Source: an uncultured Bacteroidales bacterium (GTDB lineage Bacteria; Bacteroidota; Bacteroidia; Bacteroidales; CHK158-818). Taken from it: a stretch of 64,000 nt of DNA. This document shows positions 8,659-50,159 of this stretch, piece after piece. The notes beneath the pieces were generated by a model. The model had not been told where the DNA came from. It ran no database searches and was given only the letters and a program-made list of their open reading frames with translations. Location: the NCBI GenBank assembly GCA_949300615.1, contig CASGEW010000010.1, positions 391 through 64,390 of the forward strand, read 5' to 3'. How positions within the stretch are numbered: position 1 is the stretch's first letter; the number at the start of each line of letters is the position of its first letter. A program made the translations under genes and the position numbers.

Positions 8659-9426
8659 ATGGAAAATTTTATGGAACAGAATGACGAACGGGTACAAAAG
8701 ACTCCCCGTGAGTTGTTGCGTGAAAAATTGTTGCAGTACTATCCCGACCGGAAGGTGGAGTCGGACGATGACCTTTTCGATTTGCTTTGTGAGTACGACT
8801 CGCAGATCAGCAGTTGTTACAACCGTTTGAAAGATGGACAGTTGAAATTGGCTTACCTGTTTAACGAGCATCCCAGAGTGGGGGCCTTTATTTCGGATGT
8901 TGTGTCGGGCGATGACGCGTTGTTGGCTTGTGTCCGTCATTTCGGGAAAGAATTGTTGGAAAGCGGGAACGATTTTGACACGTTGGATCGGATTCGCCGC
9001 GAAGATATGATTTACCGCGAACGACGTATGCAGCAGCGGGCCATGGAGGAAGAACGGGAACAAAATTGGGAACGCAGCGAACGTATCATTGCGGCGTTCA
9101 AAACGCAGCATGGCTTGTCGGACGAGGTGTTCGATCGCTTTCTGGAAGAGGTGTACGATTTGGTGGAGAGTATCTTCATGGGTAAATTCTCCATGCGGAC
9201 ACTGGAACTCCTCTACCGGGGGATGAATTATGAGTCGGACATGATGCAGGCCGAGATGAATGGTGAGATACGGGGAAAGAATCAGCGGATTGTCCTGGAA
9301 CGGGAACGGGCTGCCGGCGATTCGGTGCCTTCGTTGCATAACCGTACTTCGGTCGGAGCTCTTGACGACGATGACAGATTACCTCTTGCCGGATATCGCC
9401 GACAACCTTCGGTGTGGGATTTATAA
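8659..9426 (+). CDS. putative capsid scaffolding protein
   Basis: 255 aa, highly charged and acidic, with helix-prone repeats (RREDMIYRERRMQQRAMEEEREQNWERSERI). It sits immediately upstream of the capsid-like gene. The call rests on position and composition only. Confidence 0.45.
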   Translation: MENFMEQNDERVQKTPRELLREKLLQYYPDRKVESDDDLFDLLCEYDSQISSCYNRLKDGQLKLAYLFNEHPRVGAFISDVVSGDDALLACVRHFGKELLESGNDFDTLDRIRREDMIYRERRMQQRAMEEEREQNWERSERIIAAFKTQHGLSDEVFDRFLEEVYDLVESIFMGKFSMRTLELLYRGMNYESDMMQAEMNGEIRGKNQRIVLERERAAGDSVPSLHNRTSVGALDDDDRLPLAGYRRQPSVWDL

Positions 9427-9475
9427 CAAGGCCTTTGGGTAAAATTCTATGTATAACTTTAATGATTAAACAAAC

Positions 9476-10861
9476 ATGAGAAAAAAAGTATTTCAGTTTT
9501 TGAAGTCGGAGAACTTTTTGCTTTTTGCATTGGCGCTGATAGCGATAGCTGTTAGCCTTTGTTCGAATGATGGCGTATTGGTTGCGGCTGTTTTTGCCGG
9601 AGCATCGGGTAGTAAGATTGTGTCGGGAGAGTCGCTGACAACCGATATCAGCCGGAGAGAAAGTCCGGACCTGTTGATGAATGAGGTGGATAATGTCATC
9701 ACGAAGATCCGTCCGTTGTCAACCCCGATTGATCAGATTTCGCGCGTGGCCAGAGCCCGCAAAAGCCAGTCGATGATTGTCGATTACTATTCGGTAGATG
9801 TGAAACCGAGCCGTACTACGGTAAAAACCGCTTATACGGAACCCGATAGCGAAGATGCTACGGCCAATGCTCAGCGGGTGAAACTGGCTACGGCCAACGA
9901 TGAAATTTTTGAAGTGTCCGAAACGTTGCTTTTGCCCGGATTGAAAGGTTACGAGGCTGATGGAACGACCTTGTCGAAGTCTGATTTGGTGTTGTATGTG
10001 TCGTCAAAAGATGAGGATGGGTCTATTTATGTCTATGCCATCAACGGGAAGAAAATCGGTACGATTGAAAATTGCGTGCCTTCGCTCTCGGCAGGACAGG
10101 CCATTATCCGAATGGGGCGTGCTGCGACCGAATTGGATGTACAGACCGGTCAGTTTGAGGCGTTGCCTGTCAAGGAGCAGAATTTCTGCCAGATTTTCAA
10201 AATGCAGATTGAAGAATCTACGTTGCAGAAAATTGCCAAAAAGAATGTTCCTTGGAGATTCTCGGATTCGGAAGAGGCTGCCATTTTCGATATGCGCCTG
10301 GGAATGGAGAAGACCTTTATGTTTGGTGTAAAACGTCAGATTTACGATGCCAAAAAGAAAGAGTCTGTTTACCTGACCGGAGGTATCTGGTGGCAGGCCG
10401 GTAAGGAGTATGAATACGATGCTTCGGCTGGATTTACCCAGAACGATTTGGTGGACATTATGAAAGAGGCCTTTACCGGGAATGGCGGTACGAAACGGAA
10501 AATGTTGGTGGGCGGATCGGATTTGATTGCCGCCATCAATAAAATGGAGATTACCAAGGTGATTAATGCCAGTGAAACCACGGCGGCATTCGGGATGGAT
10601 TTCACCCAGATCGTATCGAAATTCGGGAAACTGGGGGTTATCTTCTCAGAAGTCTTTGATGATTGCGGTATGTCCGGTTACGGATTTATCGTAGATCCCG
10701 ATTTGATCACCAAGTGGTCGCATATCCCGTTCGGGAAAGAGCAGCTTGACCTGAAAAAGGCCGGTATCCGAAATGTGGATGCTACGGTACTTACCGAAGC
10801 CAGCTGTTTGACGCTCCGTTATCCGGCGGCCCATATGCGTATCGTTCCCCAAGGAGCATAA
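9476..10861 (+). CDS. putative major capsid protein (HK97-fold type)
   Basis: 461 aa. Its position after the scaffold-like gene fits, as do motifs I associate with podoviral/HK97-like coat proteins (SPDLLMNEVDNVITKIRPLSTPIDQISR; GMEKTFMFGVKRQ; GGIWWQAGKEY). The N-terminal ~65 aa are unusually hydrophobic, so the start is uncertain. Confidence 0.65.
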   Translation: MRKKVFQFLKSENFLLFALALIAIAVSLCSNDGVLVAAVFAGASGSKIVSGESLTTDISRRESPDLLMNEVDNVITKIRPLSTPIDQISRVARARKSQSMIVDYYSVDVKPSRTTVKTAYTEPDSEDATANAQRVKLATANDEIFEVSETLLLPGLKGYEADGTTLSKSDLVLYVSSKDEDGSIYVYAINGKKIGTIENCVPSLSAGQAIIRMGRAATELDVQTGQFEALPVKEQNFCQIFKMQIEESTLQKIAKKNVPWRFSDSEEAAIFDMRLGMEKTFMFGVKRQIYDAKKKESVYLTGGIWWQAGKEYEYDASAGFTQNDLVDIMKEAFTGNGGTKRKMLVGGSDLIAAINKMEITKVINASETTAAFGMDFTQIVSKFGKLGVIFSEVFDDCGMSGYGFIVDPDLITKWSHIPFGKEQLDLKKAGIRNVDATVLTEASCLTLRYPAAHMRIVPQGA

Positions 10862-10902
10862 GCTGTTTGTCTGGGGCTTGTGATTGATTCTTTTTGAAAG
10901 GT

Positions 10903-10957
10903 CGGATTGCCCTGTATGTTTCATGTTGGTGAGAGATAGGGGGCAATCCGTTTCTTT
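10903..10957 (+). terminator. stem-loop plus T-rich tail after the capsid-like gene
   Basis: cggattgccc (10903-10912) pairs with gggcaatccg (10941-10950), followed by tttctttatt. Confidence 0.45.
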
Positions 10958-10971
10958 ATTATTAAAATGCA

Positions 10972-11361
10972 ATGTTTATGGATGATATAAAAATATATAC
11001 GACCCGCCATGGGAATTTAAGTATCCCTTTGTGCGTGGATGGCAAGCAAACCCGGATACGGTTTGTATCCAAAGATAACATAGTGGGGTTTTATGTTACC
11101 GCCGATAAGGCGATACAGCAGGCCGTAGAGTCGATACCGGCTTTCGGTACCAAAATTCAGTTGCAGGCGTCCGGTTACCGGCCTGCGGAGGAGATGGAGA
11201 TTCCGCTGGCTCCTGTCGAAGGTATTACCACGTGGCAGGCTGCCCGTGAATATTTGTGTAAGCCGCCCTATTCAGAGCCGAAAAGGGGACTGAATACGCC
11301 CGAAAAGATTCGTGCCCGAGCCAAAAAGCTGGGACTTTTCTTCCCAGAAATAAAAGAGTGA
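10972..11361 (+). CDS. hypothetical protein (virion module)
   Basis: 129-aa ORF with an ATG start, co-directional between the capsid-like and fibre genes. No motif recognised. Confidence 0.55.
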   Translation: MFMDDIKIYTTRHGNLSIPLCVDGKQTRIRFVSKDNIVGFYVTADKAIQQAVESIPAFGTKIQLQASGYRPAEEMEIPLAPVEGITTWQAAREYLCKPPYSEPKRGLNTPEKIRARAKKLGLFFPEIKE

Positions 11362-11387
11362 GTAGATTAATTTAAAAACAACCAGTT

Positions 11388-14300
11388 ATGCAATATTGTA
11401 ATTTACACGACCGTTCTAATGGATTGTTTCTGGGCTATTTCTCTATGTTGACCGAGGTGTTGAGTAAATATCCCGAAGGGGTACCGGAAGGTAGTTATTT
11501 CGTGAATGGCGAGACGTTGTCTATCTGGGTATGGAACGATGCGGAAAAAGAGTGGATGGATACGAATCGTCCCATGCAAAGCCCGTTGTCGGGTGTAGTG
11601 GATGACCCGGCAACATACCGTCCCGAGGTGGTCAAAGGGGTGAAGGCCTATTATTTGTATATTTCGCCGCCGGCGGACAATCTTTGTTTTGTCCATTTTG
11701 TCAATGGGGATGAACCCTTGCGGATAACGGTTGAACAATCGGCTGTTATCAGCCTGTTTTGGGACGGCGACTTTTGGCACGTGTATATCACTCCTGTTAA
11801 ATTGGAGGCGTTTCAAGCGGAGGCTTATACCGATTTTCGGTTTCAGCTGTCAACCTCGGAAGATACCCCTCCACAGGTGAATCGGCTTTCAGTTAATCCG
11901 GGGGAGGGTTGGGTGTCGCAAATCCCGGAATCTGGTGAAGGGTTGTTTTTGTGGATGATCAGCGCTAAGTTGGATGGTAACGGCGATTTTTGCGATGCCG
12001 AAACCGGCTGGTCGGCTCCTGTTCGTCTGACCGGGGACAAAGGTTCTACCGGCCCTAACGGAGAAAACAGCTATTGTATGGTGTTGAGCAACGACAGCCA
12101 TACGATTCCCTGTCAGAAAGATGGTTCTGGCGGTTATTACGACGGGGCTCATACTACGTGTTATGTCTTTGAGGGGAGCGTGGATATTTCGTCGCAATAT
12201 ACCTTCAACGTAATCGTTCCCGATGGAGTTGTATATACACTGGGAAACCAGAACCGTACGGTGGTGGTTTCCGATATGGAGGATGATTCGGCTACTATTA
12301 CCTTTATCGGCGAATGTCTGGATAAACCTACCTTGTTTAAAATATTTTCTTTGGCTAAAAGCAAACAGGGTTTCGACGGCGATCCGGCTGTAACGTATCG
12401 ACTTTCGGTGTCGGATATTGTTGTAAGGCAGACCTCGGCAGGGTTGAGGGTTCCCGAGCAGTTGACGGTGGAGTCTCTGGTCCAAACGGCCGGAGAAGTT
12501 CCGACTCTTTTCCCGGCATATTTTTTGGTAGAAGGAATAAAGGAAGACTCTTCTCGTACGACGTTGTTGTCAACCACCTCCCCGGTATCGTCAGTCTCTT
12601 TCCCGACGTTGTCTGAATACGACTCTTTTGAAATAACGTTGTATAAAGATTATACTGCGGAAGGAGGATTCCAGAACCGGTTGGATCGTGAGAATATACC
12701 GGTTTTATGCGATGGCGCTGACGGCGTAGGAAGTGTTGGTGCCGTGTTGAGGCCGCGCGGAGAGTGGAGTAATACCAAGATATACGGTTGTTTCGATGCG
12801 TACCGGGATGTGGTCATTTATGGGGAAGATCGAAAATATTATGTTGCCAAAGAGGGGATCGGTTCTATACCGGTGGGAACACTGCCTACCAATACCATTT
12901 ATTGGGAACCGTTTGACGATTACGAGAATATTGCTACCGGATTGTTGTTGGCCGATAACGCATATATCGACATTCTCGGGACGAGTGGTATTCGTATAGG
13001 CAATTACCCCAATTGTTGGGAGATGACGGCGGGAACAATTGTTCACCGGGTTTCTGGATTGTCTTTAACGGCTGATGGCGTATTGTCTGCCCCGGATGGT
13101 TTGCATATAAAGATTGGCAATAATACGATTGCCGATTTTACGGATCAAAAGATTCAAACTTCCGTAACAGAGGTAAAAAGTTATACGGATAATAAGGTTT
13201 CAGATCTACAAATCGGTGGCCGGAATCTATTACCCAACTCAAAAGATGTAAGCGATACGCCTACCTCTTTTGCGGTAGGATATTTGGCTGCATATAGAAA
13301 TTTAACGAGGACCTTAAACGCAGGCGAGACGGTTATTTTTTCATACAGCGGAGTAACATCGAATAGTATTGTTGGATTCGCTTTATATAGTTTAAATTCT
13401 TCCATAGATGTTTTTCCGGCGAATACTCCGGTAACGTTGACGAAGAGTTACGAGCATTTTCGAGTTAGAGTGTCCTCTTCGGCGGCTTTTGCCGCTGCTT
13501 ATATGAAGTTGGAAGTTGGTACAAAAGCAACGGATTGGTCGCCTGCCCCGGAGGATGTACAAGATGAGTTGGACGATAAAGTAGCTACGACGGTTTATAA
13601 TACTGGGATCACACAGTTACAAAGCAGCATTAATTCCAAAGTAAGCCAAACCGATTTCGATGCTTTGGGAAACCGCATCTCTGCGGTTGAAACGGAAATA
13701 ATCCAAACGCCTAATAAAATAACCCAGGCAATAAAGGAAACAAGTATAGGGGGCGATAATCTTCTACCCAATCTACAACAGCGGTGGGCACGAGGACGTT
13801 TTAATTCTTCAACAGGAGCTATTGAGGTGCCATCAGGTACAGGTTGGAGTTATGTGCGAATAAATATATACTGTGCAGAATTTTTCCCGGTAAACGGAGG
13901 AGAAACGCTGGTATTTTCAGCTCCGACGGATCATTCGTACACGTGTTTTCCTGCTCAGTATGATGCGAGCAAGACGTTTATACCTGTTGCACCAGAGCTT
14001 TATTATATGCGTAATTATTACGATGAAAATCAGCCTGATAATTTAAAGTTTTTAACGTTAAAGCCGCAAACGAGATACGTGCGTTGGCAGATACAATGTT
14101 CATACGGAAGCGAGACAGGAGATTTTTACCCATCTTGGTTTGAGACAAACCATGCACAAGTAGAGATAGGTACTAAGCCGTCGGCGTATAAGACGCCGTT
14201 TACCGATGTAACCTATACAGGTATTGATATACAGCAGGGAAAGATTTTTCTTACGTCCGACAAGGTAGAAATATCGGGTTCACTTATTGTCAAAGGTATC

Positions 14301-14864
14301 CAGAACGGAGGGATTAACGTAGGAGGAAACTGCATCATTACCAGTACGGGGTTGATTACTGCCAAAGGAGCGACCATCGAGGGGAAAATAACGGCAACGA
14401 GCGGAAGCATAGGAGGGGTAAGCATAAGCAATAGCCGTATAGGTATTGATTCAAGTAGCTCTACTGCTGTTGGCTCTTTCCTCGCTGCCGGATACTTAGG
14501 AGTAAGAAGTAAGGCCAATTATTTTCGGGTCGATGCGAATGACGCAGAGTTACAATGTACGATAAACAAGCAAAGCGACACAACACCCTGTATAGATATT
14601 AAGAATACATCTACATCCGGCGGGTCAACGGCTGCAACAGCCATCCGGGCGTTCGGTAAAAACGAGTTATACGGAGGAGTTCAAATTATAACGGCAAATG
14701 CAACGCTAATAGACGATGCTGCTCCTAAAATAGAGGTAACCCGAACCGATTTAAAAGTAACGTTGCGATATAATAATACCGGAACGTATGTAACCGGCTA
14801 TTTAAGGATAACATCATCACCGGCAACCGGAGGAGCTGCGACAGTACAATTTGTAAGAGACTAA
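11388..14864 (+). CDS. tail fibre / receptor-binding protein
   Basis: 1158 aa. It has a short collagen-like run GDKGSTGPNGEN (12033-12068). Two tandem modules each start IGG(R/D)NLLPN and end (K)LE(V/I)GTK..., the first continuing into the DWSPAPED motif common in prophage fibres, and are separated by a coiled-coil-like spacer. The C-terminal segment is Gly/Ser/Thr/Ile-rich. Confidence 0.7.
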   Translation: MQYCNLHDRSNGLFLGYFSMLTEVLSKYPEGVPEGSYFVNGETLSIWVWNDAEKEWMDTNRPMQSPLSGVVDDPATYRPEVVKGVKAYYLYISPPADNLCFVHFVNGDEPLRITVEQSAVISLFWDGDFWHVYITPVKLEAFQAEAYTDFRFQLSTSEDTPPQVNRLSVNPGEGWVSQIPESGEGLFLWMISAKLDGNGDFCDAETGWSAPVRLTGDKGSTGPNGENSYCMVLSNDSHTIPCQKDGSGGYYDGAHTTCYVFEGSVDISSQYTFNVIVPDGVVYTLGNQNRTVVVSDMEDDSATITFIGECLDKPTLFKIFSLAKSKQGFDGDPAVTYRLSVSDIVVRQTSAGLRVPEQLTVESLVQTAGEVPTLFPAYFLVEGIKEDSSRTTLLSTTSPVSSVSFPTLSEYDSFEITLYKDYTAEGGFQNRLDRENIPVLCDGADGVGSVGAVLRPRGEWSNTKIYGCFDAYRDVVIYGEDRKYYVAKEGIGSIPVGTLPTNTIYWEPFDDYENIATGLLLADNAYIDILGTSGIRIGNYPNCWEMTAGTIVHRVSGLSLTADGVLSAPDGLHIKIGNNTIADFTDQKIQTSVTEVKSYTDNKVSDLQIGGRNLLPNSKDVSDTPTSFAVGYLAAYRNLTRTLNAGETVIFSYSGVTSNSIVGFALYSLNSSIDVFPANTPVTLTKSYEHFRVRVSSSAAFAAAYMKLEVGTKATDWSPAPEDVQDELDDKVATTVYNTGITQLQSSINSKVSQTDFDALGNRISAVETEIIQTPNKITQAIKETSIGGDNLLPNLQQRWARGRFNSSTGAIEVPSGTGWSYVRINIYCAEFFPVNGGETLVFSAPTDHSYTCFPAQYDASKTFIPVAPELYYMRNYYDENQPDNLKFLTLKPQTRYVRWQIQCSYGSETGDFYPSWFETNHAQVEIGTKPSAYKTPFTDVTYTGIDIQQGKIFLTSDKVEISGSLIVKGIQNGGINVGGNCIITSTGLITAKGATIEGKITATSGSIGGVSISNSRIGIDSSSSTAVGSFLAAGYLGVRSKANYFRVDANDAELQCTINKQSDTTPCIDIKNTSTSGGSTAATAIRAFGKNELYGGVQIITANATLIDDAAPKIEVTRTDLKVTLRYNNTGTYVTGYLRITSSPATGGAATVQFVRD

Positions 14865-14885
14865 ACACTAAAAACAGACAAAACA

Positions 14886-15155
14886 ATGAAACTGAATTTA
14901 AAAGAGTTGCCCGTCGAAGTATCGCCTGACGGCACGATAGAAAACAGAGATGTCCGCACACAGATGGGCAATCTGCTGTGGAACTTTTCGCAAGACATTG
15001 CCCTTTCCGACGTCGGGAGGGAGATTTACCGCAGCGAGGGTGAGATCGAGGTGGCCGATGTATATCGGGAGGGAATCGAAGACCTGGTAAAACGATCAAC
15101 CTTTTTTGCCCCCGTCAAGCGGGCCATATTGAAACAACTTAATACTAACCCATAA
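14886..15155 (+). CDS. hypothetical protein (virion module)
   Basis: 89-aa ORF with an ATG start, 21 nt after the fibre stop. Confidence 0.5.
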   Translation: MKLNLKELPVEVSPDGTIENRDVRTQMGNLLWNFSQDIALSDVGREIYRSEGEIEVADVYREGIEDLVKRSTFFAPVKRAILKQLNTNP

Positions 15156-15176
15156 AAAGAATAGGAGGAATAAATC

Positions 15177-15500
15177 ATGTTAGAAAAAATCAAAACCACC
15201 GTAACCGTAGAAGCGCGAAAAGAGACCGATAACGCGTTGTATCAGTTGAACTATTCGGTCGTGGATAATAGCTTGACGTCTATAAACTGTTCGGTCAATA
15301 AAAAGACTGTTGTACAGGTAGATGCCCCCGAGGGGCAACAATTTGCCGAACAACAGGTGTATGCCGGCAACGTCTATCTGACGAACGGGCACATTACCTG
15401 TTCCATTCCGCAGGGGAATGACGCTACCGCTTATATGGCCGATTTTATGGCGATGGTTGAAGAGATCGAGAGCGACATCGAGACTGAAATCTCAGCATAA
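15177..15500 (+). CDS. hypothetical protein (virion module)
   Basis: 107-aa ORF with an ATG start preceded by aggagg, with an acidic C-terminus. Confidence 0.5.
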   Translation: MLEKIKTTVTVEARKETDNALYQLNYSVVDNSLTSINCSVNKKTVVQVDAPEGQQFAEQQVYAGNVYLTNGHITCSIPQGNDATAYMADFMAMVEEIESDIETEISA

Positions 15501-15527
15501 ACAGCAAAGGAATAAGGAGACGAAGCG

Positions 15528-16154
15528 ATGAAAATCAGTACAGAAGAGTTGAAAAATCTGGTCAAGACCGATATGGAGGAGCTCTCGCCCCAGTGGGAGA
15601 GTGAGGTGTTGCAGACCGACGCCATCGGGATAGAGCGGTATATCGAGACGAAACTGCCCGAGGCCATTCGGCAGGTTTTGTTGTCGGTTTCTCCCAGTAT
15701 GCTGGAAGCCGTTCCGTTCGATGCTGCGCTTTTGCCCCAGAAAAACCAGGATGGCAGCGGTATCGTCCCTCTTCCCGAGGATTGGATGAAGATGGTTTCG
15801 TTCAAGATGAAAGGGTGGAACCGTCCGGTAACCGAGTTCCTTGCCGAGGAGGATCCGCTTGCCATTCGCCAGCAGAATCTCTTTTTGCGGGGCGGTAGTC
15901 TCAAACCGGTTTGTGTGATAGGGCATACCCCCGAGGGCATTTTGTCGCTGTTCTATTATTCGTTACCTGCCTATGTGCGGGTGCATGAGATAGAGCAGGC
16001 GCTCTACCTGCCCTTGCCCAAAGAGGTGGATGGGGCGTACGATTTTCCCCGTCGGTTGATGCCGGAGGTTTGTTACGTGTGTGCCGCTTTGGTGTACGAT
16101 ATTCTGGGACGTCCCGATATGGCAGCCGTGATGAGAGAGCGTGTAACCCTTTAA
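15528..16154 (+). CDS. hypothetical virion protein (possible head-tail adaptor)
   Basis: 208-aa ORF. The pattern LPEDWMKMVSFKMKGWNRPVTEF...PLAIRQQNLFLRGGSLKPV resembles connector/adaptor-type proteins of Bacteroides phages as I recall them. The functional call is weak. Confidence 0.4.
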   Translation: MKISTEELKNLVKTDMEELSPQWESEVLQTDAIGIERYIETKLPEAIRQVLLSVSPSMLEAVPFDAALLPQKNQDGSGIVPLPEDWMKMVSFKMKGWNRPVTEFLAEEDPLAIRQQNLFLRGGSLKPVCVIGHTPEGILSLFYYSLPAYVRVHEIEQALYLPLPKEVDGAYDFPRRLMPEVCYVCAALVYDILGRPDMAAVMRERVTL

Positions 16155-16167
16155 AAATGTTTTTGAT

Positions 16168-16557
16168 ATGACACGATTGAGTTATTATTATGGATTGAAA
16201 GCAGCTATGAAGGATTATCCCGAGGGGGGGATGGCCGGCGACTGTTTCGTCAATGGCGAGACCTGCTCTATCTGGATGTGGGACCCCGTTTGCCGGGAAT
16301 GGACCGATACCAACCGTCCGTTGCAAAGCCCCTTGGCGGGGTTGATTATTGATGCGGCCACATTCTGCCCTTCGGTACATCCCGGCGTTCGGTGCGTATA
16401 TCTGTTCGTTTCGGGTACGGGCGGGACATTCGAGTTTCCCTATTTCCGCAACGAGGATATACCGTTGAAGGTGGTGTTGTCGGGACCGTCTCAGGTTTGG
16501 TTGTATTGGAACGGCGACAATTGGGAGGTACAGGTAATCCCTTCGGTTGCCGAGTAG
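16168..16557 (+). CDS. fibre N-terminal-domain paralog (stand-alone 129-aa protein)
   Basis: By my eye alignment it matches residues ~20-150 of the 1158-aa fibre at roughly 40-45% identity: DYPEGGMAGDCFVNGETCSIWMWD..REWTDTNRPLQSPLAG versus KYPEGVPEGSYFVNGETLSIWVWN..KEWMDTNRPMQSPLSG. Confidence 0.7.
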   Translation: MTRLSYYYGLKAAMKDYPEGGMAGDCFVNGETCSIWMWDPVCREWTDTNRPLQSPLAGLIIDAATFCPSVHPGVRCVYLFVSGTGGTFEFPYFRNEDIPLKVVLSGPSQVWLYWNGDNWEVQVIPSVAE

Positions 16558-16571
16558 TGTAGAACCGATGC

Positions 16572-16628
16572 CGGGGAGCAAATTTCCGAGATGAGGTAAA
16601 CCGGTGTTTACGGGCGGTTTGCTCCCCG
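16572..16628 (+). terminator. nested stem-loop between the structural and lysis genes
   Basis: cggggagcaaa (16572-16582) pairs with tttgctccccg (16618-16628). An inner hairpin gtaaac/gtttac lies at 16596-16611. It is followed by acattttatt. Confidence 0.4.
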
Positions 16629-16649
16629 ACATTTTATTCATGTACGGAT

Positions 16650-17105
16650 ATGACGAAATTATTTATTACGATTGTTTTCCCCGTGTGGGCGTTGTCGGCG
16701 CAAGAGGGGTTGAGAGTGTTTCTTTTGCCGTTGTGGCCGATGTATGTTTTGTTTGCGGCATTGGTGCTGGCCGATTTACGTCTGGGGGTACGTGCAGCCC
16801 GTCTTCGTGGCGAGGTGGTACGCCGCAGCCGGGCGTGGCGACGGACACTGTCGAAATATATCGACTATTGTTGTGTGGTAACGGCGTGTAAGATGTTCGA
16901 CGATTTTATCGTTTCGCAGTACAGCGTGCCGTTGGTTTACATTTCGTTTTGTTTGGTGTTGGCATGGGTGGAGTTGGATTCGGTGTTTTCCAACTTCGGC
17001 GAGTTGCACGGCATCAATGTCTTGAAAGCTGTCAAGCAGTTTATAAATGAGAAAATATCGATTGATTTACCCGAAAAAGAAGATAGAAGAGATGCAGATA
17101 AGTGA
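16650..17105 (+). CDS. phage holin-family membrane protein
   Basis: 151 aa with several hydrophobic helices. The motif LADLRLGVRAARLRGEVVRRSRAWRRTLSKYIDYCCVV resembles the holin_4_1-type family. It lies directly upstream of, and overlaps, the endolysin gene. Confidence 0.65.
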   Translation: MTKLFITIVFPVWALSAQEGLRVFLLPLWPMYVLFAALVLADLRLGVRAARLRGEVVRRSRAWRRTLSKYIDYCCVVTACKMFDDFIVSQYSVPLVYISFCLVLAWVELDSVFSNFGELHGINVLKAVKQFINEKISIDLPEKEDRRDADK

Positions 17106-17490
17106 ACATTTTTCGATGGACGAGTTTTGTATAAGCGATACGGCCAAGCGGCTTGGTATCGCCAATTTGCCCGACCAGGAGGCATCCGAATCGTTGGTTT
17201 ATCTGGTTCGGAACTTGCTCGAACCCTTGCGTCGGGCGTACGGGAAGCCCCTACACATAAACAGCGGCTACCGTTGTCCGGCCCTGAACCGGGCGGTGGG
17301 AGGCGTCTCCTCTTCCCAGCATTTGAAAGGAGAGGCGGCCGATATTTCGTGCGACGATCCGGTTGCGTTGTTGCAGCAGTTGCGCCAGACGGAGCTTGTC
17401 TTTGATCAGGCCATTCTTTACCCTACGTTTTTACATGTGTCGCTTCGCCGTCAGAATAACCGGCAGCGTATTATCATCAAAAAAAAATAG
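17092..17490 (+). CDS. peptidase M15-family (D-Ala-D-Ala carboxypeptidase-like) endolysin
   Basis: MQISEHFSMDEFCISDTAKRLGIAN...INSGYRCPALNRAVGGVSSSQHLKGEAADI carries the H..D...H zinc-peptidase M15A pattern. I prefer the ATG at 17092, which overlaps the holin stop by 14 nt, to the ATG at 17047 given in the track. Confidence 0.8.
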   Translation: MQISEHFSMDEFCISDTAKRLGIANLPDQEASESLVYLVRNLLEPLRRAYGKPLHINSGYRCPALNRAVGGVSSSQHLKGEAADISCDDPVALLQQLRQTELVFDQAILYPTFLHVSLRRQNNRQRIIIKKK

Positions 17491-17496
17491 ACCGCT

Positions 17497-21034: not shown

Positions 21035-21043
21035 TTTAGAAAT

Positions 21044-21082
21044 AAAAAAAGAAGAGATTGTATCGGCAATCTCTTCTTTTTT
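21044..21082. terminator. bidirectional intrinsic terminator
   Basis: The element reads A7-gaagagattg-tatcgg-caatctcttc-T6, between the end of locus A (21034) and the mscL stop (21087). Confidence 0.8.
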
Positions 21083-21086
21083 ATAC

Positions 21087-23610: not shown

Positions 23611-23643
23611 CGACCAAAACTTTTCTTAATTATCTGTAAAAGG

Positions 23644-23678
23644 GGCTGTCTGACGTAAGTCGGGTGGCCTCTTTTTTT
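23644..23678 (+). terminator. intrinsic terminator of the ROK kinase gene
   Basis: The RNA stem GGCUGUCUGAC-GUAA-GUCGGGUGGCC has 11 bp including G-U pairs, followed by UCUUUUUUU. Confidence 0.7.
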
Positions 23679-23707: not shown

Positions 23708-23716
23708 CCCCCCCCC
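23708..23716. repeat. C9 homopolymer tract in the terminase 5' region
   Basis: cgCCCCCCCCCgcgggg; it sits inside the palindrome ccccgcgggg, 95 nt upstream of the ATG at 23811. Confidence 0.9.
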
Positions 23717-23754
23717 GCGGGGAGTTTCTGTTTTTTTCTCATGTTGCCGGGTTG

Positions 23755-23762
23755 TCATAACA
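23755..23762 (+). promoter_or_regulatory. degenerate copy (TCATAACA) of the TTTTATAACA motif
   Basis: It matches 7 of the last 8 positions of the 10-mer (8 of 10 overall). It lies 49 nt upstream of the terminase ATG. Confidence 0.2.
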
Positions 23763-23810
23763 TCGGGATAAGAACCGTTTTTCGTTTTTTTGTCTGTAAA
23801 TGATAAGGAA

Positions 23811-38578: not shown

Positions 38579-38605
38579 TTGGTCATTCAAAAAATATAAA
38601 AGAAG

Positions 38606-39646: not shown

Positions 39647-39654
39647 TACTTTTG
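39647..39654 (+). promoter_or_regulatory. -7 box TACTTTTG for the GH43 gene
   Basis: Matches TAnnTTTG, 18 nt upstream of the ATG at 39672. Confidence 0.45.
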
Positions 39655-39671
39655 TACGCTAAAAAAAGAGT

Positions 39672-40685: not shown

Positions 40686-40700
40686 CAGTAAACTATTTTT

Positions 40701-42080: not shown

Positions 42081-42203
42081 AAAGAGACGATAACTTTCTA
42101 AACAAAACGATCGGCCTCATAGAGAAAGGCGTTGGTATGGGCCGTTCGGGAGGAGGCTAAAAATAATCGTCTCTGTCTGGATGGATATTAGAACATAAAA
42201 TGT

Positions 42204-42211
42204 TATTTTTG
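42204..42211 (+). promoter_or_regulatory. -7 box TATTTTTG for the DUF1573 gene
   Basis: Matches TAnnTTTG, 35 nt upstream of the ATG at 42246. Confidence 0.45.
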
Positions 42212-42245
42212 TGTTTACATAACGAAAAATAAAAAATAAGCAGAC

Positions 42246-43331: not shown

Positions 43332-43346
43332 CCCAAAATCCAGCAC

Positions 43347-44444: not shown

Positions 44445-44568
44445 AACAAATCGTTCTTTTTGTGGGATAGGAGAGTGTCCTATCCGGAGCATGTTAGTGC
44501 CCCGTCTGCTTGATTTTTTTGCGTATCTTTGCTACGAAAACATATTGCGAGTTTATAAATCGGTAAGT

Positions 44569-45261: not shown

Positions 45262-45283
45262 CGTTTGCTGCCGATTCAAGAAA

Positions 45284-45325
45284 GAACCGGGCAAGACGAT
45301 TCTACAAGAACGTTTTGCCCGGTTC
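45284..45325. terminator. stem-loop terminator (mainly for the portal gene on the minus strand)
   Basis: gaaccgggcaa (45284-45294) pairs with ttgcccggttc (45315-45325). There is a T-rich tail on the minus strand. Confidence 0.6.
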
Positions 45326-45370
45326 CGGTATGGAAAGAAAAACGAAAATCCGTTGTTGTTCGGTAAAAAT

Positions 45371-47359
45371 TTATTGGGATATTTCCGACGGCATATGGGT
45401 TACTGGCGAAAGTACAGTGTTCGGCTGTGCCGTTTGTCCGTTTGCGTTGTTCGGTATCCCGTAACCGTTTGCCATAGCCTGTTGTTGGTTTAACAGTTCC
45501 TGTTGCATCTTTTCCTTTACCTGCTGTATACTTTGCAACAAGCGGTCGGCAAAGGGGAAAGAACCGTTTTCGAGCAGCATTTCCAGTGAGATCTGTCCCA
45601 TCCGGAACAGCTCCATCAACAGCTCGTTCGATGCCATCCGGTAGGTAGGGTTGGTGCTCGATTCGCAGATTGAGAGGTCGAACTCCACATCCCGAACCTT
45701 TTGCGGGTTGTACATTTTCGCCTCTTTGTCATATACACTTCCGGCGATGTTCAGATAACGGGCTTCTCGATAGAATTGTTGAACCGTTTTCATCACCTTG
45801 GTATCCCGTTCTTCCCGGAACGATTTGAACGATTCAAACAGGTCGATTAAGTTCAAGCTCGAATTTTGAGTCTGTTGCGCATACAATACCCCCGAGGTAA
45901 CGGTCGTAGCGACTTTCCCCTGCATGGCCCCGTGGATACCCGATATATCTTCTATCAGGCGTAATTGCAAATTGAGCAGTTCGTATGCCCCCACGTTGGT
46001 AGCATTGGTCGAGATCTGTTGAGGCAGTACCCCGCCGGGTTTGGGCTTAAACAGGATAATACCGTTGTACCGTGTCCACTGTTCGGCCACATCTTCAATA
46101 GACATCCCGTCCGGAATCTGGTCTTCCGGGAAAAGCAGCACCCCTTTGGCGCTGGCCCCCATGATAAAGTCGATCAAGGTTATCAGTCGGTTGATATAAC
46201 GCTGTTGGTCGATAATATCCTCTACAAACGAATGTATCTCACCGTCCATCAACGGGTAGAGTTTAAAGACGTACGGATGTTCCCCGTGCCAGTAGGGAGT
46301 CTCCCCTTCGTCCAGAGTATGGCCGAAAGGGGTAAAAAAACGGTAATACCAATAGCGGTCTATAAACCACTCGGTTTCAATCAGCGCTACCTTCTCCGGA
46401 GCAATGCCTTTTTGTGCGGCTTCCTCCAAGCGCATCCGGTTTATCGCCTCTATCTCCTGCATCCGTTCCATCTCCTCTTTGTAATAATCTCCGGTTAACG
46501 TATCGTGGCAGCGCAGACGCTCTTTGTTTTCAAGCGTCCATACCTCGATGATACGGCACAAATGGGGCTCGGTGGCGATTAAAAAATCGAGGTTGTCGAG
46601 GTTGTCCGATGTCAGCGCCTCAAACGATCGGGAAATCTCTTCGCGGGTAGCCTGATTATACAGCTCCCGGAGCTGTTTGGCCCTGCGGCGCGAACCTTTG
46701 GCAAACTTGCTGACCACATCGGCAATCGGCACGTCGTGCAGTTCGCCTATTAAAGTACAGTCCCAAAGTCGAACATCCTCCATCGCGTTGAAAAATACGC
46801 GGTTCGGGTTTACGACATCCACCCAGACATCCATCCGGTTGTTTCGCCACCCGTATCCTATTTTGTGGAAGCACGTTCCCGAGACGACAAACTCTTCCAT
46901 CGTCCGGCCGTCTATTTCCCAGAGGTGGTTCATCTGGTAAACGTATTGCATGGCCACGCTCATCATCTCGCCCGCTTTCTGTTCTTCCCGGTCGCGGGAT
47001 ATGCAGACCGGTTCGGTTTGTACGTTGCGGAACTGTCCGACGATGTTCTTTACCATCTGGCGCACCAGGTTGTTTTTGAGCGGAATCTTTCCTTGCTCTT
47101 TGAGGTATTGTTCTTCGGTAATGGTGCGGCCGTCAGGAGTTTCGATTTTATCGTTCCATTGTTTGCCGAAGGTATAGTTCCGGCTGCGGCAGCGTTTCTT
47201 CCGAAAATGTTCGATGTTGTCCCAGGCACGTTTGGCTTGGAGCAGAACGTCGAGATGCGATCTGTCCAAATCGAACGTCTCATCCGTACGGTTCCTTTTT
47301 TGTTTGCCTAAGGAGCTGTCATTCCCTTCCGTAGAGAAATTAATTTCTGTCTTTTCCAT
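45371..47359 (-). CDS. phage portal protein
   Basis: The track start at 47368 is a TTG; the ATG at 47359 gives MEKTEINF.... Length is ~662 aa. The N-terminal pattern AKRAWDNIEHFRKKRCRSRNYTFGKQWND (Y-x-x-G-x-Q-W), overall size and Gln/Asn-rich C-terminal tail resemble podoviral portals. Confidence 0.7.
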   Translation of the reverse strand: MEKTEINFSTEGNDSSLGKQKRNRTDETFDLDRSHLDVLLQAKRAWDNIEHFRKKRCRSRNYTFGKQWNDKIETPDGRTITEEQYLKEQGKIPLKNNLVRQMVKNIVGQFRNVQTEPVCISRDREEQKAGEMMSVAMQYVYQMNHLWEIDGRTMEEFVVSGTCFHKIGYGWRNNRMDVWVDVVNPNRVFFNAMEDVRLWDCTLIGELHDVPIADVVSKFAKGSRRRAKQLRELYNQATREEISRSFEALTSDNLDNLDFLIATEPHLCRIIEVWTLENKERLRCHDTLTGDYYKEEMERMQEIEAINRMRLEEAAQKGIAPEKVALIETEWFIDRYWYYRFFTPFGHTLDEGETPYWHGEHPYVFKLYPLMDGEIHSFVEDIIDQQRYINRLITLIDFIMGASAKGVLLFPEDQIPDGMSIEDVAEQWTRYNGIILFKPKPGGVLPQQISTNATNVGAYELLNLQLRLIEDISGIHGAMQGKVATTVTSGVLYAQQTQNSSLNLIDLFESFKSFREERDTKVMKTVQQFYREARYLNIAGSVYDKEAKMYNPQKVRDVEFDLSICESSTNPTYRMASNELLMELFRMGQISLEMLLENGSFPFADRLLQSIQQVKEKMQQELLNQQQAMANGYGIPNNANGQTAQPNTVLSPVTHMPSEISQ

Positions 47360-47413
47360 ATAAATCAAAAGATTAAATATTTTCTGTGTTGCAAATAACG
47401 GGAATGTTGAGTC

Positions 47414-47472
47414 CGATCTTATGTTATAAAATAAGAATCGAGCGCTCCGGCTTCGATCTTGATTTTATAACA
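47414..47472. promoter_or_regulatory. imperfect palindrome / repeat array in the divergent portal-876aa control region
   Basis: The arms tgttataaaa (47422-47431) and ttttataaca (47463-47472) are exact reverse complements. The 7-mer cgatctt occurs at 47414-47420 and 47454-47460, with a near-inverted aagaatcg at 47433-47440. Confidence 0.4.
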
Positions 47473-47528
47473 GGAGCATCCTTTTCTCCGATTGTATTTT
47501 TACCTGCGAAAACAAAACTTAAAAATTT

Positions 47529-50159
47529 ATGGAACAGATTAATTTGACGTTTAAGGGAGAGACGCACTGTCCTCCTGCGGGAACATCGCCTGAGGGTGAT
47601 TGCAGCCACGTGGTCAATCTTCGGTATAAAGATGGCGCATGGCGGCCGGTCGGTCTTCCGGAGGTGCTCTATACACCGGCGGATACATCCCGGAAAATTA
47701 TATTCGTGCATAAGAACGAATCGTACGAGCATTATATCTCGTACGATGGGACTACTGTTTATTACGAATGTTGTGAAGACGAGGGCGTATTGCAACCGGT
47801 AGATTTTCCCAAGTTGGCCGATTTGCCGGAGCTGAAAAAAATTGAATCATGCGGCAATACGCTGATCTTTTTATCCCGTTCAGGTATCTCTTACGCCCTG
47901 TTCAGTGCCGGGAATTACCAATACCTGGGCGAAAAACCGGAACTTCCGCAGTTGATGTTTTATTATAACCCGGCACAAACCGAGACGGGGACCGTCCCTG
48001 CCTATACGCTCAACGAGGAAGCTTTACAAGCCGAAGGTTACCAGTTGGATGACGATGACATTATCGCTTTTTCCAATTTGGTTACAGGTACCTATAATAA
48101 ATTGAAATACGACCTGGAACAAGTCGGTACGCTTTCACATCCGGTACTGGTAAAATATGCCTTGCGGCTTTACGATGGCTCTTACATGATGTCTTCGCCA
48201 GCCATACTTTTGTTGCCTTTCGATTCAGTTCGGCGTTTCCAGCAGTACAAAGTCCCGTGTACCAAATCGGGATCGTCCGTTACGGGGTTCGAAGAGCATG
48301 AACTCTCTTTGACAGGATATAAGATATTGTATGATATGTCATTATTCAATCTGTCCAAATGGCTCGATATCGTAATGTCTCTCGATATTTTTGTCTCGCA
48401 GGAGATTATTCCGCTGAAACAAGGGGAATTCTTCTCGGAATCGACCGTTGCCGATGAACAGTACGACGGACAGCAAAAAACCGTGTTGACTTGCGATATA
48501 CCCGAACGTTCTTATGGCGAGATATGCTCTTCGATTGCCGAAGAGACGCAGTTTTATCTGGTTGCCTCCTTGGAGGTGGACAAAATGCCCAATCCGTATA
48601 AAGCCATAGAATTGCCCTTGTCGGATAAATTGAGTACGCTGGTGCATCAACCGGCGCTCCCTTCGGACGATTTTACCCACCACAGCCTCTTGCCTGAGGT
48701 ATCGTATATCTATAACAGTCGGTTGCATTTAGGAGCAGCCAGTACTCGGTTTTTCAGCGGATTTCAGTTGAGCAGTTTCCAACTGGGACAACCTCGTTGT
48801 AACGGTTATTTCTCCGGACACGGAGAAGATCATCGCGTTATCTATTTCACCAAAGTGTATGTGGAGGTAACGATAAAGGGAACCGGAGGTTCCGGGAAAG
48901 TAGTCCGGGGGATGGTAGCTCCGAATACGACTTCTTTCCCGGTCATAGGAGTTTCTCCCTACTTGTCGTATCCCGACACCCGGGCAGTGAAAATGAAAAT
49001 CTCCGGGGTTGATATAGCCGGGAAGGTGTATAACTATGAATGTACATTGACACCCTCCTCCACTCAGAATGTTGCCTATTATATAGATGAGTCGTTGAAA
49101 CCGGTAGCCTTTACTGAGTCGGACGATAATCCGGATGCACCTTTTTCCATCCCTGAATACGAACCGGTAATCGAATACACCGAGAACAAGTTGCGCGTAT
49201 CCGAAGTAAATAATCCATTCTTGTTCCCGATGGAGCAGACTTATACCTTGTCTTCTGGCCGTATTTTAGGTATGGGTGCTGCTGTTGCCGCATTATCGCA
49301 GGGACAGTATGGCGAGTTTCCGCTATACGTCTTTACGACCGAAGGCGTTTGGGCGATGCAGGTTGGGACGGGTGAAGTGGTATATGGCAGTCAGCATCCG
49401 GTAAACCGGGAGGTATGCAACAATCCCGCATCAATTACCCCGATAGACCAGGCGTTGGTTTATACTACGGATAGAGGCGTGATGCTGTTGGACGGTAGTC
49501 AGAGTACCTTGTTGTCGCAGCCGATGACCGGTCGCTCCGATGCGTTTCCCGGAGAGATACCACAAGAGATGGACGAGGAGATTCGTGCCGTGTTGTCGGA
49601 CGATACCCTGTTTGCCGATTATCTGTTGGATGCAGAAATCGGTTATAACTATGCCTATAATGAGCTGATCGTCTTGAATCCGGCCTATTCGTATTATTAT
49701 GTATTGGGCCTCGACGTGGGGATGTGGTATCGCCGGACGGGAGCCATATCCGGATTGTGTCGCGATTATCCGGATGCATTGGCAACGGACGTCTCGGGAA
49801 AGCTGTTTCATCTGGGGAAAGAGAATTTCGACCAAAAGATACCGGTGGCTCTTGTATCCAGGGCATTGAAATTCATACCGAATATGTATAAAAAGATTCG
49901 TCGTCTTTTTGTGCGTGTTTTCGGGGAAGACGTGGCGCTGAATCTCTCCTTATGGGGTGCACATGAAGCCAATAGTCGTTATGGATGTTTGTGCCGTACA
50001 GAGGGTCAGGGATTTGTTCCCGGGCGTATTCCGCTATCGCTGTGTTGTCCTTCTTTCCGCTATTACCGGTTGGTGTTGGATGGTAAAGTGGACGATACGT
50101 TCTTCTTGGAGTCTGCTGACTTTACTTTGGCTGCGGGCGGTTCTTCCAAAGAGCAGTAA
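47529..50159 (+). CDS. large virion structural-like protein (possible tail nozzle/tubular protein)
   Basis: Uninterrupted 876-aa ORF divergent from the portal gene. The N-terminal pattern SPEGDCSHVVNLRYKDGAWRPVG is reminiscent of podoviral nozzle proteins. This is a weak call based on position and resemblance. Confidence 0.45.
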   Translation: MEQINLTFKGETHCPPAGTSPEGDCSHVVNLRYKDGAWRPVGLPEVLYTPADTSRKIIFVHKNESYEHYISYDGTTVYYECCEDEGVLQPVDFPKLADLPELKKIESCGNTLIFLSRSGISYALFSAGNYQYLGEKPELPQLMFYYNPAQTETGTVPAYTLNEEALQAEGYQLDDDDIIAFSNLVTGTYNKLKYDLEQVGTLSHPVLVKYALRLYDGSYMMSSPAILLLPFDSVRRFQQYKVPCTKSGSSVTGFEEHELSLTGYKILYDMSLFNLSKWLDIVMSLDIFVSQEIIPLKQGEFFSESTVADEQYDGQQKTVLTCDIPERSYGEICSSIAEETQFYLVASLEVDKMPNPYKAIELPLSDKLSTLVHQPALPSDDFTHHSLLPEVSYIYNSRLHLGAASTRFFSGFQLSSFQLGQPRCNGYFSGHGEDHRVIYFTKVYVEVTIKGTGGSGKVVRGMVAPNTTSFPVIGVSPYLSYPDTRAVKMKISGVDIAGKVYNYECTLTPSSTQNVAYYIDESLKPVAFTESDDNPDAPFSIPEYEPVIEYTENKLRVSEVNNPFLFPMEQTYTLSSGRILGMGAAVAALSQGQYGEFPLYVFTTEGVWAMQVGTGEVVYGSQHPVNREVCNNPASITPIDQALVYTTDRGVMLLDGSQSTLLSQPMTGRSDAFPGEIPQEMDEEIRAVLSDDTLFADYLLDAEIGYNYAYNELIVLNPAYSYYYVLGLDVGMWYRRTGAISGLCRDYPDALATDVSGKLFHLGKENFDQKIPVALVSRALKFIPNMYKKIRRLFVRVFGEDVALNLSLWGAHEANSRYGCLCRTEGQGFVPGRIPLSLCCPSFRYYRLVLDGKVDDTFFLESADFTLAAGGSSKEQ

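Follow-up and report, generated by a model that had tools for sequence, protein, structure and literature searches.

Phage-derived head, packaging and lysis genes scattered among core genes of a Bacteroidales chromosome: a candidate host-maintained particle system

Do the phage-type genes that lie in three separate blocks among core genes of an uncultured Bacteroidales bacterium (lineage CHK158-818; assembly GCA_949300615.1, contig CASGEW010000010.1, positions 391 to 64,390) belong to a prophage, to the debris of one, or to a set of genes that the host itself maintains? In this stretch of 64,000 nucleotides, hereafter the window, the open reading frame (ORF) listing and profile searches place block A at 8659-21034, block B at 23811-25814 and block C at 45371-50159. 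A sequence-only reading of the window had proposed host-maintained particle genes resembling those of a gene transfer agent (GTA), with the intact pieces of an old, fragmented prophage as its alternative. Profile searches, conserved genomic positions and selection tests support the former proposal, and we consider it very probable that the window carries a host-maintained, phage-derived particle gene set and not a prophage.

ORFs of at least 100 amino acids (aa) in the window were searched against profile libraries (Pfam and PHROGs, and for proteins without a match also NCBIfam and PADLOC). Block A encodes a 461-aa major capsid protein of the SU10/DUF5309 type (9476-10861, plus strand; SU10_MCP, 2.4e-46; phrog_26635, 4e-96), along with a scaffold-like protein, small conserved virion-module proteins such as p129a and p208, a fibre, a holin and an endolysin. 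Block B is a large terminase gene (23811-25814, plus strand; 667 aa from its ATG, in an ORF that opens with TTG at 23790; phrog_2, 2.9e-20) that stands alone between ROK and copA. Block C consists of a P22-type portal gene (45371-47359, minus strand; 662 aa from ATG; P22_portal, 5.6e-41; phrog_156, 2e-76) and, divergent from it, the gene for p876, an 876-aa conserved virion-type protein (47529-50159, plus strand) that matches the function-less family phrog_32516 (2.5e-89) and, weakly, internal virion proteins. The host genes among which the blocks lie were identified by Pfam as fumarase, MscL, FabI, ROK kinase, CopA, AlaS, an M23 peptidase and MerR, and further as MurF-Alr, GSCFA, PhoU, GH43, MatE, DUF1573, MeaB, DUF4919, OmpH and others. 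The layout drawn by the sequence-only reading, with three blocks separated by core host genes, a lone large terminase in block B and a portal gene divergent from an 876-aa structural-like gene in block C, is therefore borne out at every position, and its capsid, portal, terminase, fibre, holin and endolysin calls were all confirmed by the profile searches it had called for.

What the window lacks is equally consistent with that reading, which had seen no integrase, repressor or replication gene, no flanking direct repeats, no sheath or tape-measure gene and no interruption of the phage-type ORFs. None of the searched ORFs matched an integrase, repressor or replication family, and none of these families was seen in the searched flanks of relatives either. 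No att-like direct repeats flank the blocks, profile searches found no contractile sheath or tape-measure gene in the window, all phage-type ORFs are intact, and a tRNA scan returned no tRNA genes. The phage-type genes also match their surroundings in composition, with a G+C content at third codon positions of 0.58 against 0.56 for the host genes of the window and a matching overall G+C content. Judged by gene content and position, the set is not an integrated prophage: it is split by core host genes, has no integrase or att site, and keeps its arrangement across genera. It comprises structural, packaging and lysis genes without replication, integration or lysogeny modules, which is the gene content by which a GTA or viriform is recognized.

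How the same genes are arranged in relatives distinguishes two classes. A terminase-alignment scan of a genome collection found at least 585 species-level genomes with a relative; for the best 80 terminase loci, flanks of up to 10 kb were searched by tblastn with all phage-type proteins of the window, and the terminases were placed on a neighbour-joining (NJ) tree. In the contiguous class, terminases are 44-53% identical to that of the window, 18 loci have capsid and portal genes beside the terminase, and homologues of the scaffold-like protein and p208 were detected in most of these 18; the hosts are Bacteroides, Phocaeicola, Prevotella, Alloprevotella, Butyricimonas, Parabacteroides, Rikenellaceae and others. 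In the split class, terminases are 57-84% identical and come from Coprobacter, Caccoplasma, Barnesiella and related metagenome-assembled genomes (MAGs; 28 loci), with 22 loci from Muribaculaceae as the sister group. No capsid or scaffold gene lies within 10 kb of the terminase at any of these 50 species-level split loci (28 Barnesiellaceae, 22 Muribaculaceae), and a metagenome scan with a capsid alignment likewise found no terminase within 10 kb of the capsid gene at any of 80 loci. The 50 split terminases form one clade in 81 of 100 NJ bootstraps, with a contiguous relative, L108, just outside. On the 1.287-Mb contig NODE_1 of UMGS48, the capsid gene lies near 401 kb and the terminase near 785 kb, about 383 kb apart. 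In Coprobacter tertius, terminase and portal genes, surrounded by ribosomal-protein, IF-2 and suf genes, have 44 kb between them, and a different contig carries the capsid gene. Heminiphilus faecis, an isolate of Muribaculaceae, carries a p876-like gene and a terminase between seryl-tRNA synthetase/AraC and Na/Ca exchanger/GH2. A separate terminase clade comprises loci of ruminant "Bacteroidaceae" MAGs (L071, L074, L086, L089, L077, L085, L097 and L098); four of these eight have a capsid and a p876-like gene, but no portal gene, within 10 kb.

The separated units keep the same host neighbours from one genus to the next. Scaffold and capsid genes adjoin fumarase in the window, in its sister species (L102), in Coprobacter fastidiosus (L100), in C. 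tertius (L101) and at about 45 metagenome loci from several lineages, and the capsid is 68-70% identical to the Coprobacter orthologues at this position. The flanks of block C in the sister species are identical to those of the window, with U32-HTS-...-M20-OmpH on the p876 side and DUF4919-MeaB-DUF1573-MatE-GH43-PhoU-GSCFA-MurF on the portal side. In C. tertius, the GSCFA-MurF/Alr-MerR-M23-AlaS cluster adjoins the terminase and FabI-ROK adjoins the portal gene, and both clusters are found between the blocks of the window; in the complete genome of Barnesiella viscericola DSM 18177, a lone portal gene is followed 3 kb on by four more conserved genes beside FabI-ROK. Since independent insertions would not give shared host neighbours across genera, the pattern points to one ancient insertion followed by local rearrangements. 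The dispersed arrangement thus recurs beside the same host genes in several species and genera, as the sequence-only reading had anticipated of a maintained system, and homologues are not confined to contiguous, integrase-bearing prophages, a restriction that it had said would count against it.

It had also named an assembly chimera as a danger. The junction of fumarase with block A, the flanks of block C and the terminase-copA junction are all reproduced in independent assemblies from different samples, so the layout of the window is not a chimera. Public records also place the exact capsid, terminase, portal and p876 proteins of the window on contigs whose length reaches 81,411 bp, presumably a single contig. 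The organism is Candidatus Gallibacteroides avistercoris or a close relative, a member of Barnesiellaceae near Coprobacter, Caccoplasma and Barnesiella: a protein recorded under that name matches the capsid at 98% identity, and the portal and p876 share 90%-identity clusters with others so named.

Comparison with the relatives further indicates that the set in the window is incomplete and has parts outside it. An additional conserved unit, made up of genes for proteins of about 85, 175, 165-190 and 790-825 aa and usually divergent from the terminase, occurs in relatives (L012, 6058-9919; L019, 5976-9938; L103, 1-3652; L017, 15121-19492) and is absent from the 64-kb window. The sister species has this unit 6 kb away from its terminase, on the far side of SSB, CNNM, ACPS and FKBP genes. 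The large protein of the unit (790-825 aa) matches positions 2312-2463 of the 3,427-position profile phrog_14770, the length of which recalls a 3,633-aa giant protein of Bacteroides phage BF1-TP2, and is therefore probably a cut-down piece of a giant virion protein of the ancestral phage.

If the host maintains these genes, then they should bear the mark of selection. Synonymous divergence (dS) from the sister species is about 1.6-2.8 and saturated; at this depth, the ratio of non-synonymous divergence (dN) to dS is 0.05 for the capsid, 0.04 for the portal, 0.08 for p876 and 0.12 for p129a, compared to 0.01-0.09 for the flanking host genes, and the terminase has a dN of 0.094 where its neighbour CopA has 0.079. 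The sequence-only reading had looked for values well below 1, and the 0.04-0.08 of capsid, portal and p876 are those of host neighbours. Between genera, where dS is saturated and only dN can be set against that of host genes, the capsid, terminase and portal (0.23-0.26) diverge like MurF-Alr (0.23), the M23 peptidase (0.26) and AlaS (0.18). Within the species, the ratio of non-synonymous to synonymous polymorphism (pN/pS) is 0.03-0.19 for the small genes of block A (p89, 0.03; p107, 0.11; p208, 0.12; holin, 0.19; endolysin, 0.11; p129b within this range); p623, which has in-frame indels, and p586 reach 0.43 and 0.40. The zero non-synonymous capsid differences found within the species were discarded as evidence, being an artefact of retrieving identical proteins.

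The distribution of variants fits the same picture. Intact orthologues are present in at least 50 species-level genomes of two families. One and the same C. fastidiosus terminase variant turns up in 163 collection blocks, and one capsid variant of that species in 314; single variants in so many samples are the behaviour of core genes and not of a prophage. Clade-wide inheritance under purifying selection, the other hallmark of a GTA or viriform, is thereby indicated, with recombination as a caveat.

The source of these genes can be narrowed down to one kind of phage. In the INPHARED collection, only the Bacteroides phages BF1-TP2 (PQ571263), BKO1-TP3 (PQ571269) and BS-TP4 (PQ571277), with genomes of 64-68 kb, gave clear matches to all three markers; their proteins are 40-41% (capsid; BF1-TP2, 41%), 46% (terminase), 44-49% (portal) and 31% (p208) identical to those of the window, and the terminase of the window aligns to that of BF1-TP2 at 46% identity over 98% of its length. 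These phages share with the window the local order of scaffold, capsid, small protein and 208-aa protein. Unlike the window, they are contiguous: BF1-TP2 carries, on a single strand, scaffold, capsid, small protein, p208 homologue, large virion proteins and endolysin, this head run being divergent from two small genes, terminase and portal, and the remainder of its genome includes Erf, RusA, a replication initiator, methylases, an anti-repressor and the giant protein. The window keeps the BF1-TP2 homologues of capsid, p129a, p208, terminase, portal and p876 (26% identical to BF1-TP2 gp33), and the recombination, replication, methylase and anti-repressor genes and the giant protein are absent. 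Related prophages of Bacteroides, Phocaeicola, Prevotella and Butyricimonas are likewise close by sequence, but host genes do not separate their structural genes.

The nearest "undomesticated" relative, judged by a terminase that branches just outside the split clade, is represented by two IMG/VR contigs, L108 and L109 (IMGVR_UViG_3300045988_177377 and _173752). Both are 39-43 kb long, with contiguous genes and 57-62% identity to the window, and both run from a 202-aa gene through the terminase to a 153-aa gene, divergent from which are the genes of scaffold, capsid, p129a and p208 and one for a fibre of 454 aa, the p876 gene lying more distant; the 153-aa ORF (phrog_27246) is a candidate small terminase. 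The scaffold-position protein and the fibre N-terminal domain of the window both find matches in L108.

A candidate regulatory element shared by the units is a lead for their co-regulation. An element centred on TTATAACA lies in sense orientation 47-91 nt ahead of the first gene of each unit, in the window and in the sister species. In the window, the copy TGTTTTTATAACA (8556-8568, plus strand) stands 91 nt 5' of the scaffold start codon, a degenerate copy, TGTCATAACA (23753-23762, plus strand), stands 49 nt 5' of the terminase ATG, and the divergent control region of block C (47419-47472) holds two inverted perfect copies, TTATTTTATAACA at 63 nt from the portal start and TGATTTTATAACA at 57 nt from that of p876. 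Allowing up to one mismatch, TKATTTTATAACA has four matches in the 64 kb, three of which precede phage-derived units. The scaffold copy is kept at the same distance in the sister species (L102) despite saturated dS, the terminase there has TATTATAACA 47 nt upstream at the matching position, the inverted pair of the portal/p876 region is also present (L104), and the element precedes all units of that species at the same distances, including the unit absent from the window. In Coprobacter, the element lies ahead of the unit upstream of the terminase, and the promoters have a Bacteroides-type -7 box (the consensus of which we take to be TAnnTTTG) about 30-35 nt downstream of it, which would place the element near -40.

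Taken together, these results indicate that an ancestor of Barnesiellaceae, and probably also of Muribaculaceae, acquired a podovirus of the BF1-TP2 kind, with an SU10-type capsid and a P22-type portal. Its replication, lysogeny and integration genes are gone at every locus examined, and the head, packaging, fibre and lysis genes were broken up into several transcription units among core genes. These units have since been passed on as part of the chromosome, and purifying selection on them equals that on housekeeping genes. Beyond this, we offer a fuller scenario tentatively: an ancient podovirus-derived GTA of Bacteroidales, domesticated once before the split of Barnesiellaceae and Muribaculaceae and now forming a regulon of at least 4-5 scattered units. 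A dedicated regulator might turn on all units jointly through the TTATAACA element. Scaffold, capsid and portal proteins would assemble procapsids, which the large terminase would fill with headfuls of whatever DNA is available, that is, the host chromosome, since no phage genome is present. The small conserved proteins, p876 and the unit outside the window would complete a short tail, to which the fibre would dock by its conserved N-terminal domain. Holin and M15 endolysin would finally lyse the producer cell, and the strain-variable C-terminal part of the fibre would set which cells the particles bind. That the set works as a gene transfer agent is the likeliest mechanism and, on this evidence, close to an even call.

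Several observations weigh against this account. We infer GTA function here from the genes alone, as we do the particles, the packaged DNA and its transfer. From end to end, the three blocks of the window cover 41.5 kb and thus fall short of the related phage genomes (64-68 kb), so one headful of ancestral size could carry all three, and a barrier to self-transfer is seen in relatives only (383 kb). PDB-sequence, NCBIfam and PADLOC searches of the set yielded no head-tail adaptor, no tail nozzle and no small terminase, which the sequence-only reading had not recognized either, and most of its small proteins are still without an assignable function after the same searches. The regulatory element was found post hoc, its enrichment over 33 relatives is only 4.7-fold, in upstream zones that are A+T-rich, and several lineages have no recognizable copy. 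Host flanks in Muribaculaceae were checked in one isolate only. One split-class terminase, that of L039 (Bacteroidales SGB3004 MAG, 10001-11797), is alone in having in-frame stop codons, two in number, through genuine loss of the gene there or through a fault in the MAG. Finally, the fumarase and capsid trees disagree: a lineage with a capsid 63% identical to that of the window has a fumarase 92-93% identical, while Coprobacter, with a capsid at 68-70%, has a fumarase at 81%. This conflict implies some recombinational exchange of one or the other, so that inheritance has not been purely vertical; within the species, fumarase (6765-8405) is 100% identical at the DNA level, and synonymous polymorphism in block A (8659-16557) is 0.05-0.2.

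The main alternative, which we hold to be less likely than gene transfer, is that the genes were domesticated for another use, as PBSX-like or bacteriocin-like killer particles, for packaging and export of a particular mobile element or of damaged DNA, for programmed lysis or the release of public goods, or for interference with infecting relatives of the ancestral phage. The evidence for host maintenance would be the same for any particle use, strain variation in the fibre suits a killing spectrum no less than a range of recipients, conservation extends to the lysis cassette, and no partner genes for DNA uptake or recombination were seen. The packaging genes, however, tell against killers of the tailocin type, which have no need of them: terminase and portal are intact, and 13 terminases of 57-84% identity show no variation in their ATPase and nuclease motif residues, including the segment KARQWGGST (which we take to be a Walker A with N-terminal lysine, as in several terminases), the acidic and coupling residues and the nuclease aspartates. 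A defence role finds no match in PADLOC, and the contractile sheath and tape-measure genes of such killers are, as noted, missing from the profile matches.

Neutral decay of an old prophage, fragmented by rearrangement and intact by chance, is highly improbable, and we reject this alternative of the sequence-only reading. Some signs of disorder do exist, in that acrB and copA are split, so that the genome or its assembly carries disruptions, p623 and p586 evolve faster (pN/pS of about 0.4) and the terminase of L039 has stop codons. Neutral ORFs of 460-1160 codons, however, would not outlast some two substitutions per synonymous site, whereas these are intact across two families at dN/dS of 0.04-0.08, diverge in amino acid sequence to the same extent as housekeeping neighbours and hold their positions beside the same host genes. 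Nor do distant hosts carry near-identical DNA here, as recent independent insertions would leave it. A chimeric assembly, or an active prophage that has captured host genes and moves as one unit, is scarcely credible: the 41.5-kb span would fit the capsid of the ancestral phage and the source contig is probably metagenome-assembled, but the junctions recur in independent assemblies, the genes between the blocks belong to the single-copy core and keep their host order, integrase and att site are missing, and relatives have their units at distances of 44-383 kb or on separate contigs.

The remaining genes of block A fill out the inventory of the host-maintained set. The block opens with the scaffold-like protein (255 aa; 8659-9426, plus strand), which matches the function-less family phrog_22323 (1e-29) and is 28% identical to the counterpart in L108, likewise directly 5' of the capsid gene; BF1-TP2 agrees in gene order and gave no sequence match. 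The protein is charged and has a C-terminal tail, R-x-S-[VI]-W, that recurs in C. fastidiosus and BF1-TP2. Its position 5' of the capsid gene suggests a scaffold. Residues 14-30 of the capsid are hydrophobic, like a signal peptide or transmembrane helix, and are so in the Coprobacter orthologues and BF1-TP2 as well; this segment, unusual for a capsid protein, may be a cleaved pro-segment. The gene of p129a (129 aa; 10972-11361, plus strand) follows the capsid gene, as do its homologues in relatives, with identities of 32% to BF1-TP2, 36% to L108 and 41-50% to Coprobacter.

Next comes the 1158-aa fibre or receptor-binding protein (11388-14864, plus strand), which matches several PHROG tail-protein families (best, 1.6e-13). 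Its N-terminal domain (about aa 10-140) is 40-46% identical to those of fibres that are shorter (324-486 aa) and come from Coprobacter and from phage-like contigs. Two conspecific strains, L002 and L003, have the region 13675-14277 replaced by DNA without similarity and a region 14277-14864 that is only 84-85% identical, compared to 93-99% for the rest of the block and 93-100% for the neighbouring genes, an exchange of C-terminal cassettes typical of proteins that bind variable cell surfaces. Downstream of the fibre are p89 (89 aa; 14886-15155, plus strand), which has no family match and is called in all independent assemblies, p107 (107 aa; 15177-15500, plus strand; phrog_29137, 6.7e-10) and p208 (208 aa; 15528-16154, plus strand; phrog_22135, 1.7e-23). 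Homologues of p208 lie 1-2 kb past the capsid gene in canonical prophages and BF1-TP2 and occur in Coprobacter blocks too; a single-sequence AlphaFold model of this protein (pLDDT 35) gave no functional information, and no PDB sequence matched, whether the query was a single protein or a profile of p208, p876 or the 788-aa protein. The next gene, p129b (129 aa; 16168-16557, plus strand), encodes a paralogue of the fibre N-terminal domain, with 41-44% aa identity to related fibre N-termini and a 69-nt repeat (16216-16284) that is 72% identical at the nucleotide level to 11469-11537 in the fibre gene; it could be what is left of a second fibre gene, or could act at the fibre docking site as a competitor or adaptor.

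The lysis genes follow, with a 151-aa holin (16650-17105, plus strand; Phage_holin_4_1, 1.3e-6) and an M15 endolysin of 124 aa as called elsewhere (17116-17490, plus strand, in an ORF that opens at 17047; Peptidase_M15_3, 4e-20; phrog_894, 5e-36). The last two ORFs of the block are of uncertain membership: p623 (623 aa; 17497-19368, plus strand) and p586 (586 aa; 19274-21034, plus strand), which has a lipoprotein-type N-terminus with a hydrophobic stretch ending in Cys. Neither matched Pfam, PHROGs, NCBIfam or PADLOC, homologues of the two were seen in the same species only, and both may simply be host surface proteins. The sequence-only account of block A is upheld for capsid, fibre, holin and endolysin, while its two large accessory ORFs, without a phage match, are doubtful members.

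In block C, the portal is 44-49% identical to portals of Bacteroides phages and 65-67% identical to those of B. viscericola and C. tertius, and p876 is 38% identical to the product of an 870-aa gene in C. tertius that is likewise divergent from the portal gene.

Hairpin terminators are supported in part. A bidirectional one with a 16-bp stem separates block A from mscL (21046-21082; z = -5.9 vs shuffles), a good hairpin follows ROK (23638-23675), another follows the portal gene (45283-45326, minus strand; z = -3.4 vs shuffles), and a GC-rich one follows p876 (50177-50210, plus strand; z = -2.5). The claim that each block is bracketed by its own terminators is thus upheld after p586, ROK, portal and p876; it fails in that the hairpin after the terminase is weak and the overall count barely exceeds that of shuffles. 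Consensus scans for promoters and terminators gave counts at or near shuffle level in the window, the consensus being uninformative for Bacteroidota.

Some neighbouring features deserve mention. A 351-aa pectate-lyase-like protein between copA and alaS (29349-30404, minus strand; PF12708, 5.6e-10) was considered as a fourth phage piece, since phage tailspikes also use this beta-helix fold, and is treated as a host protein because it has no PHROG match. The M23 peptidase and MerR near alaS were rejected as members of the set; their phage matches run via generic domains only, and the same host cluster is found in C. tertius. Frameshifts divide two host transporter genes into overlapping pairs of ORFs, namely those for an AcrB-type RND pump (1665-3416 and 3197-4789) and for the CopA P-type ATPase (25920-27443 and 27373-28134); they mark true pseudogenes or arose in the assembly. 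Nine consecutive C (23708-23716), past the ROK terminator and ahead of the terminase promoter region, may serve phase variation by strand slippage or may be prone to sequencing error. On the 5' side of the M20 peptidase gene, a 42-nt sequence with a Bacteroides-type -7 box (TATATTTG) is tandemly doubled (51150-51191 and 51233-51274, 88% identity) and resembles a doubled promoter.

If DNA-carrying particles are made, then Barnesiellaceae and Muribaculaceae would have a host-controlled means of chromosomal DNA exchange, and the set would be the first GTA in Bacteroidota and an unrecognized route of such exchange in abundant gut bacteria. This would bear on strain evolution, on the spread of resistance and polysaccharide-utilization genes and on how "bacterial contamination" of gut viromes is read. 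The free phages, contiguous prophages and scattered host regulon would form a natural series of domestication, and the hypothesis is directly testable, as C. fastidiosus, C. tertius, B. viscericola and H. faecis are all in culture. The set could also explain Muribaculaceae DNA in fractions of virus-like particles (VLPs): a preprint of 2026 reports abundant Muribaculaceae (Duncaniella) DNA with uniform coverage in mouse VLP fractions, by a mechanism that was not identified (10.64898/2026.07.08.737213), an observation that is compatible with the set and circumstantial.

Full-text literature searches turned up no GTA, viriform or domesticated prophage system described in Bacteroidales/Bacteroidota, Muribaculaceae, Barnesiella or Coprobacter, in agreement with the sequence-only reading, which had known of no characterized equivalent in the phylum. 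GTAs are known in detail from few lineages, mostly Alphaproteobacteria, among them RcGTA of Rhodobacter capsulatus. Like the set in the window, RcGTA-type GTAs lack replication and integration genes and consist of phage head, packaging, fibre and lysis genes spread over several loci, which have descended vertically in a large host clade and are maintained by purifying selection; the set in the window is presumably a regulon as well. RcGTA probably shares no homology with this set beyond the general HK97-fold and terminase level, and differs in being siphovirus-derived with a 15-kb main cluster, whereas the window has a podovirus-like, far more fragmented set in which terminase, portal and capsid genes each lie elsewhere. 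PBSX of Bacillus subtilis is a host-kept defective phage whose particles package random host DNA, are released by lysis and act as killers; it is one contiguous, myovirus-type cluster with a contractile tail, in contrast to the dispersed set described here, which has no sheath or tape-measure genes. The comparison with RcGTA draws in part on a published summary of GTAs (PMC12946183). The same study, published in 2026, describes a gut GTA in Bacillota, FpGTA of the gut commensal Faecalibacterium prausnitzii, which is podovirus-like, is encoded in two operons about 125 kb apart and is near-ubiquitous in its genus; it was discovered via host DNA in VLPs, and its particles and their packaging of 8-9 kb fragments were shown experimentally (PMC12946183). 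FpGTA resembles the set in the window in its gut host, its podovirus-like character and its separated units, and differs in holding TerS, TerL, portal, scaffold and capsid genes in one 10.5-kb operon, where the window has them in separate units. Next to RcGTA and FpGTA alike, our set belongs to a different phylum and is known from its genes only. No GTA-named family was among the Pfam, PHROGs and NCBIfam matches of the window proteins, and with best matches of the SU10_MCP, P22_portal and BF1-TP2 type, we do not file the set in the RcGTA-like (Rhodogtaviriformidae), BaGTA or VSH-1 families; these matches, as opposed to a direct sequence comparison, point to a phage ancestor different from those of RcGTA, BaGTA and VSH-1. 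Set beside these known systems, the genes described here would represent an independent, podovirus-derived and highly dispersed GTA-like system, conserved in Barnesiellaceae at least and probably in Muribaculaceae.

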